This document shows positions 8,909 to 61,765 of a stretch of DNA of 64,000 nucleotides, piece after piece (position 1 is the stretch's first letter; each line of letters starts with the position of its first letter). Location: contig OX597835.1 of NCBI GenBank assembly GCA_951406725.2, positions 31,372,001 through 31,436,000 on the forward strand, given 5' to 3'. Position numbers and translations under genes: made by a program. The notes under the pieces were generated by a model. That model searched no databases. It saw only the letters and a list, made by a program, of their open reading frames with translations, and was not told the origin of the DNA. Origin of the DNA: Octopus vulgaris (taxonomy: Eukaryota).

Positions 8909-9100
8909 TGGCGGCGAACTGGCAGAAACGTTAGCACGCCGGGCAAAATGCGTAGCTGTATTTCGTCTGCCGCTACGTTCTAAGTTCAAATTCCACTGAG
9001 GTCGACCTTCATCCTTTCGGAGTCGATTAAATAAGTACCAGTTACGCACTGGGGTCGATGTAATCGACTTAAAACCTATGTCTGTTCTTGTTTGTCCCCT
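8909..9100 (+). mobile_element. SINE family A
   Basis: ggcggcgaactggcagaaacgttagc head plus family A core. Confidence 0.9.
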
Positions 9101-9541
9101 AATTGTTATTGTCTGAGATTTTGGTGTAATTTGAGAGGATAATACAAAAGTTATGGTTGATTTAGTGATTTACTGCAAAACCCATGGCGGCCAAAATGAT
9201 CAGAACGGTTGAAAAAATAACAAAATAATCAAAAATGTTTAGTAAACGAACCATCACGTAAACAAATTCAAAACATTAGAGTTCACCGGTTAAATATACT
9301 AAAACACGGAGTAAAAGCAACCGTTCTGATCCTTTTGGCCGCCATGGGTTTTGCAGTAAATCACTAAATCATCCATAACTTTTGTATTATCCTCTCAAAT
9401 TACACCAAAATCTTCGACAATAACAATTAATATTGTATTTATTGTCTGTGAAAATTATAGAATATAAAACAACTTTGATAAAAACTTATACCTACTTTTC
9501 TGGCGAAAACAATGCCGTTCTGAACATTTTGGCCGCAACTG
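9101..9541. mobile_element. Tc1-like MITE with IR/DR-type terminal repeats (left end truncated)
   Basis: Inverted repeat 9101-9211/9318-9428. Motif gcggccaaaatg.tcagaacgg occurs as inner and outer repeats. Right end ...caactg|TA. Confidence 0.75.
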
Positions 9542-9572
<31 letters not shown>

Positions 9573-9973: not shown

Positions 9974-10012
<39 letters not shown>

Positions 10013-10020
<8 letters not shown>

Positions 10021-10963
10021 ATTAGGGCTTAGTAAAATAAATTACTTTGCCACATACTGAACTTAGTAGAAATAGCAGCCAAAAAAAATTTTCTTAGCAT
10101 TTCTACTACTTAAAGAAAATTTCTCTCAGATAATGTTTACTCTAGACAGCTCACGAAGGTTTGGGGGTAAATACAGAAAAATATCACAAGTACATAGATC
10201 GTTTGAGTACGTCAACGTTTCAAGATTAGCCAAATAAAATCAGCATTTCTATCGTCAGCTCAAAATTTCTTAATTTGGATTTGGAAACACTAAAAAGAAG
10301 GAACTTTACCTATCAGCGAACTACTCGCTTCAGATGAACCACTCCAACTAACAGTGTCAACAAATTCAAAATGCGCAGGCGTAAAATTCTGCACTCCCCA
10401 TTCCACCCACGTGGTCTATCTATCAAACATTATATTTTAACCGCGAGAACCGAGGTAGTATGACCGAGAGAAATGAATTATAATATCAACAATTGAGGGT
10501 AAAATTAATTAATTAATCAATTTCACCAAGTGTTCAGTATGTAAAAGGACCATTTAAGGCGAATTCAAAATATTACATTATATAATTAGGGCTTAGTAAA
10601 ATAAATTACTTTGCCACATACTGAACTTAGTAGAAATAGCAGCCAAAAAAAATTTTCTTAGCATTTCTACTACTTAAAAAAAATTTCTCTCAGATAATGT
10701 TTACTCTAGACAGCTCACGAAGGTTTGGGGGTAAATACAGAAAAATATCACAAGTACATAGATCGTTTTCTTTAAGTAGTAGAAATGCTAAGAAAATTTT
10801 TTTTTTTGGCTGCTATTTCTACTAAGTTCAGTATGTGGCAAAGTAATTTATTTTACTAAGCCCTAATTATATAATGTAATATTTTGAATTCGCCTTAAAT
10901 GGTCCTTTTACATACTGAACACTTGGTGAAATTGATTAATTAATTAATTTTACCCTCAATTGT

Positions 10964-10969
<6 letters not shown>
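10013..10969 (-). mobile_element. Non-coding Penelope-like/retrozyme-like element: 564-bp monomer, partial tandem copy, inverted segment
   Basis: 10013-10204 repeated at 10577-10768; 10766-10969 is the reverse complement of about 10483-10683; (TA)n on both sides; contains an HHR. Confidence 0.8.
10202..10264 (-). ncRNA. Type I hammerhead ribozyme (canonical core, GUA cleavage triplet)
   Basis: tttgag CTGACGA t-aga-aat-gctga-ttttat-ttggc-taa-tct-t GAAA cgt tg acg TA^ ctcaaa: perfect 6-bp stem I, 4-bp stem III. Confidence 0.8.
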
Positions 10970-11002
<33 letters not shown>

Positions 11003-11100
11003 TTAATCCAAACAAGAGAACACAAAGAAAACACAGCAACGCGAGGACGTGGAACAAATAAAGTATTATTGGACGCTCAGGAAAGAAGGGAAGAAGGAGG

Positions 11101-11135
11101 GTTTAACGTTTCGAGCGGAGCTCTTCGTCGGAAAC
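11101..11135 (-). ncRNA. Minimal hammerhead-like motif (U4C core) in a Penelope-like end (about 11001-11200)
   Basis: gttt CCGACGA a gagc tcc gctc GAAAC GTT^ aaac. Confidence 0.6.
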
Positions 11136-11239
11136 ATAGGAGAAGGAAAGATCCCGAGAAGGGAAGTCAGAAGGAAAAAAATCGCTGGCCGTGCTCACGA
11201 GGTCGTGTGTGTGTGTGTGTGTATGTGCGTGTGTGTGTG

Positions 11240-17299: not shown

Positions 17300-18152
<853 letters not shown>

Positions 18153-22795: not shown

Positions 22796-22884
<89 letters not shown>

Positions 22885-23021
22885 ATACAGTGTACGTTCA
22901 AACACAAAAGAGATACCCGAAGAATAGAATATCTGACTCGGTAGAAAGAGCAGTTAAAACTCCAAGCAACCAATTGTTGTAATTCCGAAAGTGATTAGAA
23001 AATAAAAACTTTTACCTTAAT

Positions 23022-23108
23022 CCTAGACCCTGCAAGGTTTCTGCAGACTTAAATACAGACTGAAATAAAATAATTTCAGTCAATATCCGGCGCTGCTTCT
23101 TCAGTAGG
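23022..23108 (-). ncRNA. Type I hammerhead ribozyme (canonical core, extended stem II, GUC)
   Basis: ccta CTGAAGA a gcag...(gactgaaat/atttcagtc)...ctgc a GAAA cctt gc aggg TC^ tagg. Host element about 22885-23345 ends in an inverted repeat (23248-23284/23306-23342). Confidence 0.75.
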
Positions 23109-23353
23109 TTGCCAGGACTGAACACATAGGCACGGAGCGATAAATAACCCGCCACGTGACTATAGGTTCTAATTTTTCGAATCTACCGCGCAGAAGCGGA
23201 ACTCAACCTGCACTAAAATACAAATTGCCAAAAAACATTTTATCATCAATTAAAATCTTAGGGTAGCAAGAATATTCATCGAAAAATTTATGGGAAGTAA
23301 GAATCTTTCGATGAATATTCTTGCTACCCTAAGATTTTAATTAAATAAATATA

Positions 23354-24209: not shown

Positions 24210-24274
<65 letters not shown>

Positions 24275-24339
24275 AATAAAATGAGACAACACAGCCAGGC
24301 TGTATAGAATTTTCAGGTCATTTATAAAAAGATATCTAG

Positions 24340-24385
24340 TCTTACAGCTGTTTCTGGGATAGTAGGGATATCCCTTCATCAGAGA
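24340..24385 (-). ncRNA. Type I hammerhead ribozyme (canonical core, GUA)
   Basis: tct CTGATGA a gggata tccctac tatccc a GAAAC agct GTA^ aga; palindromic ACAGCTGT stem III. Confidence 0.75.
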
Positions 24386-24471
24386 TGATGTGAGATGTTC
24401 AAATAGAGGGAACTAGATAACAATACCTCTCATATCAATCAATCAATCAATCTATCTATCTGTCTCTCTCA

Positions 24472-35176: not shown

Positions 35177-35218
35177 ATATATATATATATGTGTGTGTGC
35201 GTGTGTGTACACATATAA

Positions 35219-35615
35219 CTATTTCTTTACTGCCCACAAGGGGCTAAACACAGAGGGGACAAACAAGGACAGACGAACGGATTAAGTCGATTACATCGAC
35301 TCCAGTGCGTAAATGGTACTTATTTTATCGACCCCGAGATGATGAAAGGCAAAGTCGACCTCGGCGGAATTTGAACTCAGAACGTAGCGGCAGACGAAAT
35401 ACCTATTTCTTTACTACCTACAAGGGGCTAAACACAGAGGGGACAAACAAGGACAGACAAACGGATTAAGTCGATTATATCGACCCCAGTGCGTAACTGA
35501 TACTTAATTTATCGACCCCCGAAAGGATGAAAGGCAAAGTCGACCTCGGCGGAATTTGAACTCAGAACGTAGCGGCAGACGAAATACCGCTAGGCATTTC
35601 GCCTGGCGTGCTAAC
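35219..35615 (-). mobile_element. SINE family A tandem dimer
   Basis: Two ~185-bp units joined at gacgaaatac|ctatttcttt. Confidence 0.9.
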
Positions 35616-40630: not shown

Positions 40631-40744
40631 AAAATACACAGTTGAGGCAATATGTACATAAAATATCCATCTATGTATCATACTTAAAACACTGTCGATA
40701 GGCCAAGCCGGGAAAAACGCTTCGCAGCATTTCGACCGTCTTTG

Positions 40745-41200
40745 TTGGACTCATGATCGTAAGATTGTGGTTTCGATTCCTGGACTGAGCGACGCTTTGC
40801 GTTCTTGAACAAATCACTTCATTTCACGTTGCTCCAGTCTACTCAGTGTGGCTTAGTGATTAGGGGTGTTCGACTCATGATTGTAAGATTGTGGTTTCGA
40901 TTCCTTGACCGGGCAACACATTGTGTTCTTGAGCAAATCTCTTCATTTCACGTTGCTCCGGTCCCAGTCAGTGTGGATCAGTGGTTAGGGTGTTTGACTC
41001 ATGATCGTAGGACTGTGGTTCCGATTCCTGAACTCGGCGACCCGTTGTATTCTTGAGTAAAACACTTTATATCATGTTGGTCCAGTCCCCCCAGCTGGCA
41101 AAAAGGGGCAATCCTGCGACGAAGCAGCATCCCGGCCAAATGGGCTATATATACGCCATGAAACCACGAAACCGGCCCTTATGAAGAGGTATGAGTCAAG
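40745..41200 (+). mobile_element. tRNA-derived SINE with three tandem head units
   Basis: gactcatgat(c/t)gta.ga.tgtggtt.cgattcct repeated at about 40748, 40872 and 40996; related copy at about 49995-50210. Confidence 0.8.
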
Positions 41201-43646: not shown

Positions 43647-43756
43647 CACGTATAGACATATATACATACGTACATCCTTACAACAATATCCCTGGTGTGT
43701 GTGTGTGTATGTGTGTGTATGTTAGTGCGTGTGTTTACATAGATATATTACTATTA

Positions 43757-44430
43757 CGTCTGAGCCTTCAAGGAGGTGAGGATGCAGAATCGATAACACG
43801 CCGGACAAGATGTTAAGAGATATTTCGTCTGTTCTTACGTTGTGAGTTCAAATTCTGCCGAGGTCGACTATGCACTTCATCCTTCCAGGGTCGATAAATT
43901 ATGTTACCAGTTGAACAGGAGGATCGATATCATCTCTTTATTCCCACCCACGAAATTGCAGGCGTTGTGCAACACCTTAAAAGCCATTATTATGTCTGAG
44001 CCCTTAAGGCGGTGAGCTGGTAGAATCAGTTGCACGCCGGACAAAATGCTGACTACTATTTCGTCCGTCTTTACTTTCTGAGCTCACATGCTACCGAGGT
44101 CAATTTTGCCTTTTATCTTTTCGGAGTCGATAAATTAAGCACCAGTTGCATACTGGGGTCGATGTAATTGAAACCCTAGTACGCAAAATTGCTGACTTAG
44201 TGCCAAACTTTGAAACTATTCATACATCTGAGCATTTTAAGGCGGCGAGCTTGCAGAATCGATTGCGCGTCGGACAAAATGCTTGGCAGCATGTCATCGG
44301 TCTTTAGGTTCTAAGTTCAAATGCTGTCGAGACCGACTTTTCATCCCTTCCAGGGTCGATGAAATAAGTACCAATTGAGAACTGGGGTTGATATATGTAA
44401 TCGACGAGACACCCTCCTCCGAAAAATTGA
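43757..44430 (+). mobile_element. Three tandem diverged SINE family A copies (~235-bp period)
   Basis: Each is preceded by tctgagc...aagg(c/a)gg(t/c)gag. Confidence 0.82.
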
Positions 44431-61225: not shown

Positions 61226-61310
61226 TGAGATAAGCAACTGCTAATTTCACGATTATAATATTACTATGCACATACATATTATTCCTTATTGTAATATTGT
61301 AATATAGACA

Positions 61311-61765
61311 AGGCGGTGAGCTGGCAGAAACGTTAGCACGCGTAGCCGTACTTCATCTACTGTTACGTTCTGAGTTCAAATTCCGCCGAGGTCGATTTTG
61401 CCTTTCATCTTTTCAGGGTCGATAAATTAAGTACCAGTTACGCACTGGGTCGATGTAATCGACTTAATCCGTTCGTCTGTCCTTGTTTGTCCCCTTTGTG
61501 TTTAGCCCCTTGTTGGTAGTAAAGAAATAGAAATATGTATTTTGTCTACCGCTAAGTTCTGAGTTCAAATTCCGCCGAGGTCGATTTTGCCTTTCATCCT
61601 TTCGGGGTCGATTAAATAAGTACCAGATACGCACTGGGGTCTATATAATAGACTTATTCCGTTTATCTGTCCTTGTTTGTCCTCTCTGTGTTTAGACCCT
61701 TGTGGGTAGTAGAGAAATAGGTATTTCGTCCGTCTTTACGTTCTGCGTTCAAATACCGACGAGGT
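61311..61765 (+). mobile_element. SINE family A tandem multimer (2 full units plus a partial)
   Basis: Repeated gttctgagttcaaattccgccgaggtcga units. Confidence 0.9.

Follow-up and report, generated by a model that had tools for sequence, protein, structure and literature searches.

The question raised by this locus is how a non-coding unit bearing a predicted hammerhead ribozyme came to lie in a TA repeat, in more than one direct copy and with an inverted arm, and which form of RNA was its template. The locus occupies positions 10013–10969 of the window, i.e., of the whole 64-kb stretch of DNA that was analysed, and the RNA sense of the unit is that of the minus strand. An earlier note on this DNA had seen in it the reverse transcription of a ribozyme-processed RNA, either longer than a monomer or circular. 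Of this view, the reverse transcription of a non-coding, hammerhead-bearing unit from a template that appears to have been longer than one unit stands; the circular RNA is not supported, as it leaves unexplained why the copy stops near the predicted cut. The locus is probably a young member of a non-coding family that has many copies and a predicted hammerhead of the dimer type; its insertion into (TA)n would have relied on the reverse transcriptase and endonuclease that an autonomous Penelope-like element (PLE) supplied in trans, with a template RNA that was likely linear and longer than the unit.

The full 564-nt non-coding unit lies at 10013–10576 (minus strand, 33.5% GC), and the direct copy terminates at 10013, its 3′ end, in TA. 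It is adjoined at 10577–10768 by a partial second copy of 192 nt on the same strand, the 5′ end of which is near the equivalent of the predicted cut. The period of 564 reported previously is confirmed by this direct repeat: 10013–10204 and 10577–10768 match over 192 nt with one mismatch (10115 G/10679 A). An inverted, 5′-truncated copy follows at 10766–10969 on the plus strand; it is the reverse complement of about 10483–10683, its 3′ end faces outward, and it is the inverted copy of about 200 bp that had been described before. At the head-to-head junction, 3 nt of microhomology (TTT, 10766–10768) fit both sides. The element thus comprises 1.34 direct units (period 564) and an inverted arm. 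The 3′ ends of the arm and of the direct copy are offset by 94 nt, and at the single diagnostic site the arm has the copy-1 allele, unlike the adjoining copy 2. The (TA)n flanks seen earlier on both sides are present at 9978–10020, where AT microhomology overlaps the element end, and at 10966–11000, a tract held in common with a separate hammerhead-bearing fragment at about 11001–11200.

Read in the RNA sense, the direct part begins near the predicted cut, runs for 756 nt and crosses one intact hammerhead motif. Because TTT at 10766–10768 fits both sides of the junction, its 5′ end lies 3–6 nt past the cut, so that the closeness to the cut claimed in the earlier note holds and the exact distance of 3 nt does not. 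As there is only one hammerhead at the locus, release of a monomer by double cleavage is impossible here. The absence of an open reading frame was also correctly stated: the longest stop-to-stop frame within the element is 61 aa, the first AUG frame after the hammerhead meets a stop after 6 codons, and none of the six element frames tested matched Pfam. Among 43 frames of the window that were tested (36 of them from the 183 frames of at least 90 aa), none matched a reverse transcriptase or GIY-YIG domain, and no second copy of the 564-nt unit was found elsewhere in the 64-kb window.

The predicted ribozyme is a type I hammerhead at 10202–10264 (minus strand) with a long stem II and a near-palindromic loop III. 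Stem I has 6 bp, 10264–10259 pairing with 10207–10202; the core is formed by CUGACGA (10258–10252) and GAAAC (10221–10217); and the GUA triplet (10210–10208) places the predicted cut between 10208 and 10207 on the minus strand. The hammerhead with this cut, as claimed in the earlier note, is upheld as a motif by its core, its stems and the comparison with shuffled sequences, cleavage being predicted. Among 5000 dinucleotide shuffles of the unit, none gave a motif under strict criteria, which had been fitted to the real hammerhead motif, and 8 gave one under loose criteria; the motif is not due to chance. At the locus, Rfam gave no hammerhead match at the gathering score or at E up to 10, and over the 64 kb it gave 0 matches of any kind at the gathering score. 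The 12 sub-threshold Rfam matches near the locus comprised no hammerhead, and the best of them, miRNA models on the inverted repeat, were dismissed as hairpin artefacts. Free folding of the hammerhead region did not recover the ribozyme fold (z 0.45).

Minimal and variant hammerheads of PLEs have been described by Cervera and de la Pena in 2014 (PMC4209133), and they share with this motif the type I topology, the short palindromic helix III suited to dimers and the long helix II. The minimal consensus has a G10.1–C11.1 pair and an extra base after A9, whereas both are missing here. Stem II of the locus copy is weak, as it lacks that usual pair and opens with U.U; in the family, the closing pair is A–U, and the family allele at 10251, which gives a 4-bp stem II, accounts for 96–100% of the depth in four sequencing runs. 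The U.U mismatch is a private, weakening change of the locus copy. A near-palindromic loop III is the form thought to act as a dimer (PMC4209133), and dimers of PLE hammerheads are the subject of Lunse et al., as cited in PMC6765202. Self-pairing of loop III here would involve 10 bp (−10.8 kcal/mol). A family variant at 10213 turns loop III into a perfect palindrome, and one loose end in run X9 has a shorter palindromic loop III behind the same core. In its sequence, the hammerhead looks maintained in the family, in the pattern expected from selection for dimer folding, with cleavage at the level of prediction. No variants of the catalytic core occur among 40 of the 64 variants listed, where too few would be expected for their absence to count.

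The strongest local hairpin of the unit is at 10048–10127 (minus strand; z about −4 against mononucleotide shuffles), and the depth of the family drops steeply nearby. A hairpin within stem II (10251–10229, minus strand) resembles the strong hairpin at 10105–10077, about 146 nt downstream, and a 10-mer is common to both (at 10251 and 10105), which may point to an ancient duplication within the unit.

The 564-nt unit is a member of a many-copy family. At least 20 public sequencing runs (10 studies, four organism labels; 24 runs listed) contain half or more of the words of the unit; none of the listed runs is on record as RNA, X9 being RNA by guess only. In the four runs used for placing contigs, with 10021–10584 as the reference, 2448, 5228, 1670 and 37 contigs were placed on the unit. 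The dominant 3′ end of the family is at 10479–10483 (minus strand), since loose ends in each of the four runs pass into TA repeats at either 10479 or 10483, and it coincides with the outer end of the inverted arm. Summed contig depth, which is not equal to copy number and falls where subfamilies diverge (in X1 at 10192–10210), is 9–19 times higher at this 3′ end than just before the cut and 15–51 times higher than in the far body. Thus, the family shows a strong 5′-truncation gradient with most of the depth in the last ~170 nt, which implies that most copies are short 3′ pieces resembling the inverted arm.

Contigs that join the 3′-end site directly to the 369-nt body were found in X1, X4 and X9; the depths of two such contigs are 667 and 3032, compared with 33–60 for the lowest pieces listed. 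The short unit is therefore common to many copies and is not confined to this locus. These bridging contigs close the 564-nt unit at the level of the family, and among the pieces listed none spans the whole unit. A joint that goes back by 564, present in four of four runs, was rejected as a sign of a tandem or a circle, as the reference begins in the middle of the family's unit; likewise, with a reference that began at 10021, position 10013 does not stand out clearly as a second end of the family. At 10466, contigs leave the unit in X1, X4 and X9 (10, 25 and 2 contigs), and at 10383 one X9 contig does so with 140 loose letters; these conserved branch points may lead to a longer sibling or to a coding parent. 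The branch at 10296–10338 looks like a sibling variant of the same length. A 25-nt motif had no match in contigs from metagenomes, viruses or prokaryotes, and a 23-nt motif found at 6 metagenome loci was dropped as chance, since the match failed to extend in any of the six. No report of this family, or of genomic 5′ ends at the cut of a PLE hammerhead, was found in the open-access literature; the family may already be named in Repbase or Dfam, or related mollusc motifs may stand in the supplements of PMC7229834 and PMC4209133.

Two sources on PLE insertions bear on the anatomy of the locus: PMC8557442, which we take to be Craig et al. 2021, and PMC3846280, presumably Arkhipova et al. 2013. By analogy with insertions of this kind, the partial tandem, the inverted arm and the TA target together make up the standard insertion anatomy of PLEs, which the earlier note had missed. 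Insertions of PLEs show a partial tandem, an adjacent inverted and 5′-truncated copy and a microsatellite target (PMC8557442), as well as head-to-head joins, microhomology and, between pLTRs, non-PLE sequence mobilised in trans (PMC3846280). The locus is like the insertions of endonuclease-bearing PLEs in its partial tandem, its head-to-head inverted and 5′-truncated copy, its AT-rich microsatellite target, its two offset 3′ ends, the microhomology at its 5′ join and the hammerhead in the repeat (PMC8557442, PMC3846280). It differs from them in having no ORF for a reverse transcriptase with endonuclease, and in its offset of 94 nt, which speaks against the PLE reading as it exceeds the optional 30–40 nt PLE tail (PMC8557442). 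As the search gave no PLE ORF, the connection with PLE enzymes is drawn from the insertion anatomy and the motif; the use of PLE machinery, which had been proposed previously, is likely on this footing.

A further parallel [see Frangieh et al. 2024, PMC11167929] is offered by PAc, a Poseidon PLE of Anolis. When purified, the PLE protein nicks either strand of AT-rich DNA and extends it, beginning at two internal sites of the RNA, and in vitro its main substrate is uncut RNA. Like the locus, PAc begins reverse transcription internally, downstream of the hammerhead; it likewise has two start sites, an AT-rich target and read-through of an uncut ribozyme. PAc codes for protein, with an ORF that starts in the ribozyme, whereas the locus is non-coding.

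With these precedents, the insertion could have arisen as follows. A tandem donor elsewhere would have been transcribed, and an endonuclease would have nicked the TA tract. One cDNA would then have had an internal start on the RNA, at the 10013 site, and run for 756 nt, passing one uncut hammerhead; a second cDNA, on the other strand, would have begun where the family usually has its 3′ end (10483) and covered about 200 nt. Finally, the two cDNA ends would have been joined head-to-head via the 3-nt microhomology. The chances are about even that the stop of the long cDNA, 3–6 nt from the next predicted cut, reflects a ribozyme-made 5′ end of the template, of which a few bases were lost at the join. 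Both the long template and the stop would be accounted for by a linear RNA transcribed from a tandem donor, if one hammerhead in it had been cleaved and the next had not. Since it has one hammerhead only, and a private mismatch in stem II, the locus copy itself is likely not a donor.

Three other explanations have to be weighed against such an insertion of a longer-than-unit linear RNA. One, which is unlikely, is that the unit represents no more than a terminal repeat with untranslated sequence from a longer coding PLE, or that it was derived from such an element by deletion; the period of 564 would then not mark a self-propagating family. In favour of this, the branches at 10466 and 10383 lead into sequence that is absent from the locus; the concentration of depth in the last ~170 nt is like that of truncated PLE copies; and hammerheads of PLEs mostly occur singly, in truncated copies (PMC4209133). 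The bridging contigs, however, with depths of up to 667 and 3032, link the 3′-end site straight to the 369-nt body, a short arrangement common to many copies; no ORF starts after the hammerhead; and the branch at 10296–10338 has the look of a same-length sibling. It is quite unlikely that the template was a circle of 564 nt, produced by double hammerhead cleavage and ligation, on which rolling reverse transcription gave 1.3 units. Circles have been shown for the retrozymes of coral, mussel and axolotl, and proposed as templates (PMC7229834), copies of the present family read through the hammerhead, and the unit closes on itself in the bridging contigs; yet tandem DNA donors explain this closure equally well, only one hammerhead is present at the locus, and 8 of 9 dimer elements of Xenopus reportedly showed no cleavage in vitro (preprint, bioRxiv 10.64898/2026.07.22.740005). 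The near-monomer (with 3 nt of the inverted arm included) folds better than its shuffles (z −5.6), but the predicted fold is branched, with 66% of bases paired, and it is a small number of local hairpins that produce the signal. Thus, the circular RNA of a retrozyme, as put forward in the earlier note, is unsupported, being needless for a template longer than one unit and having no end at the cut that could account for the stop.

The remaining explanation concerns the inverted arm, which would have been made when a single cDNA (or an antisense template) folded back and primed itself, or else by later rearrangement or mis-assembly, with the stop near the cut a coincidence; this is very unlikely. 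The arm folds back exactly on the adjacent 10483–10683, with a spacer of 82–85 nt and 3-nt pairing, and self-priming has been proposed for PLE inversions (PMC3846280). A strand-change joint matching the locus junction does not occur among the joints listed in the four runs, which would suit fold-back or mis-assembly, although rare junctions get lost in contigs, which weakens this point. Against fold-back and assembly error alike, the arm ends at the dominant, TA-joined 3′ end of the family, which neither would be expected to hit at random; and it carries the allele of copy 1 and not that of the adjoining copy 2, although a later change could explain this.

The two-cDNA insertion proposed above still leaves the question of whether the ribozyme sets the 5′ ends of copies. 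The earlier note had suggested a search for a pile-up of 5′ truncations at the cut. In contigs, which make a weak test because they lose rare variants and because subfamily divergence distorts depth, so that a modest pile-up could escape, no pile-up was seen: among 24 of the 216 loose ends listed for the four runs, none falls at 10204–10208, and depth immediately before the cut divided by depth immediately after it is 0.59, 1.11, 3.26 and 1.0, with a step in X4 only. In three of four runs there is no step-down at the cut, which argues against 5′ ends being set often by the ribozyme. The window's other hammerhead loci would make an unfair control, as a copy truncated at the cut would show no motif. 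For the locus itself, a single end within 6 nt of the cut has a chance of about 1–5% under uniform truncation, depending on the counting, and a ribozyme-made 5′ end in this copy has roughly equal chances of being right or wrong. If the stop means anything, it would indicate a linear processed RNA, since a circle lacks an end at the cut.

Whether this extends to the family is doubtful: that cleavage by its hammerhead takes place in vivo and defines the 5′ end of the RNA copied by the PLE reverse transcriptase, so that a distinct subset of copies begins at the cut, can be put forward only tentatively. If true, traces of how PLE-type ribozymes function would be preserved in the genome like fossils, within a family of high copy number whose palindromic dimer loops are evolving. 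For Anolis, no RNA reads starting at the cut are reported (PMC11167929), in contrast to the locus copy with its 5′ end 3–6 nt from it. The role of the hammerhead in PLEs is stated to be unclear (PMC8557442). As the present family is young and has very many copies, a genome-wide count of 5′ ends relative to the cut is feasible, making it a test case for this role.

As to the class of the element, metazoan non-LTR retrozymes (PMC7229834; bioRxiv 10.64898/2026.07.22.740005) are alike in having a non-coding, low-GC unit with a type I hammerhead and many dispersed copies that are likely moved by PLE enzymes. The length of 564 nt fits the range of 51–972 bp given by Li, Clavereau and Pollet 2026 (the same preprint) but exceeds the 150–450 bp of the retrozymes of Cervera and de la Pena 2020 (PMC7229834). 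The locus motif differs from the canonical looped type of metazoan retrozymes with 6+4 bp, and the locus is known from DNA alone. In plant LTR retrozymes, type III hammerheads lie in two LTRs, whereas the motif here is of type I and single. With 1.34 units and one hammerhead, the locus falls short of the two complete units by which the preprint defines an "active retrozyme" (10.64898/2026.07.22.740005). The same preprint equates non-autonomous PLE derivatives with the non-LTR retrozymes of animals, and by this analogy the element likely works like a non-autonomous, retrozyme-like PLE derivative. Because the locus has fewer than two units and no PLE ORF, it is regarded as an insertion from a retrozyme-like family, rather than as an active representative of one or the other class. 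It adds one family to the known classes and illustrates how a retrozyme-like unit may spread with the insertion anatomy of PLEs.

Insertions of this kind look common in this genome, the microsatellite load and a short repeat of which suggest a cephalopod host. Hammerhead loci have already been counted in a squid genome (PMC6962438). The window holds four further hammerhead-like fragments that end in microsatellites (motifs at 11131, 17888, 23104 and 24382), and all five hammerhead motifs are on the minus strand. Homology of these four fragments to the 564-nt unit was not detected beyond one 15-nt match at chance level. At 11001–11200 (minus strand) there is an unrelated minimal hammerhead, with a core that has C at position 4 (start 11131) and a predicted cut after 11105; the 3′ end of the fragment adjoins the (TA)n tract 10966–11000, and the fragment is likely another PLE end. 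The hammerhead at 17888 has a very long stem II and a palindromic loop III, and its 3′ end is ~36 nt past the cut, where it runs into (TA)n; it lies within 17770–18152 (383 nt), which comprises a head-to-head inverted copy with 84% identity, both arms reading through the ribozyme. The motifs at 23104 and 24382 lie in fragments (22880–23342 and 24270–24400, minus strand) that end in CT and CA microsatellites, and upstream of the former there is a 95-nt palindrome.

A similar anatomy, in which no hammerhead was detected, is found at 9100–9545, with an inverted repeat of 112 nt, a short partial direct repeat and a TA tract at 9542; this element interrupts a dispersed short repeat at 8910–9100. 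Dispersed short repeats also occur in the window as local tandem dimers or trimers, at 35215–35588, 43752–44395, 61310–61765 and 40743–41089, with periods of 184, 236, 189 and 124, respectively.
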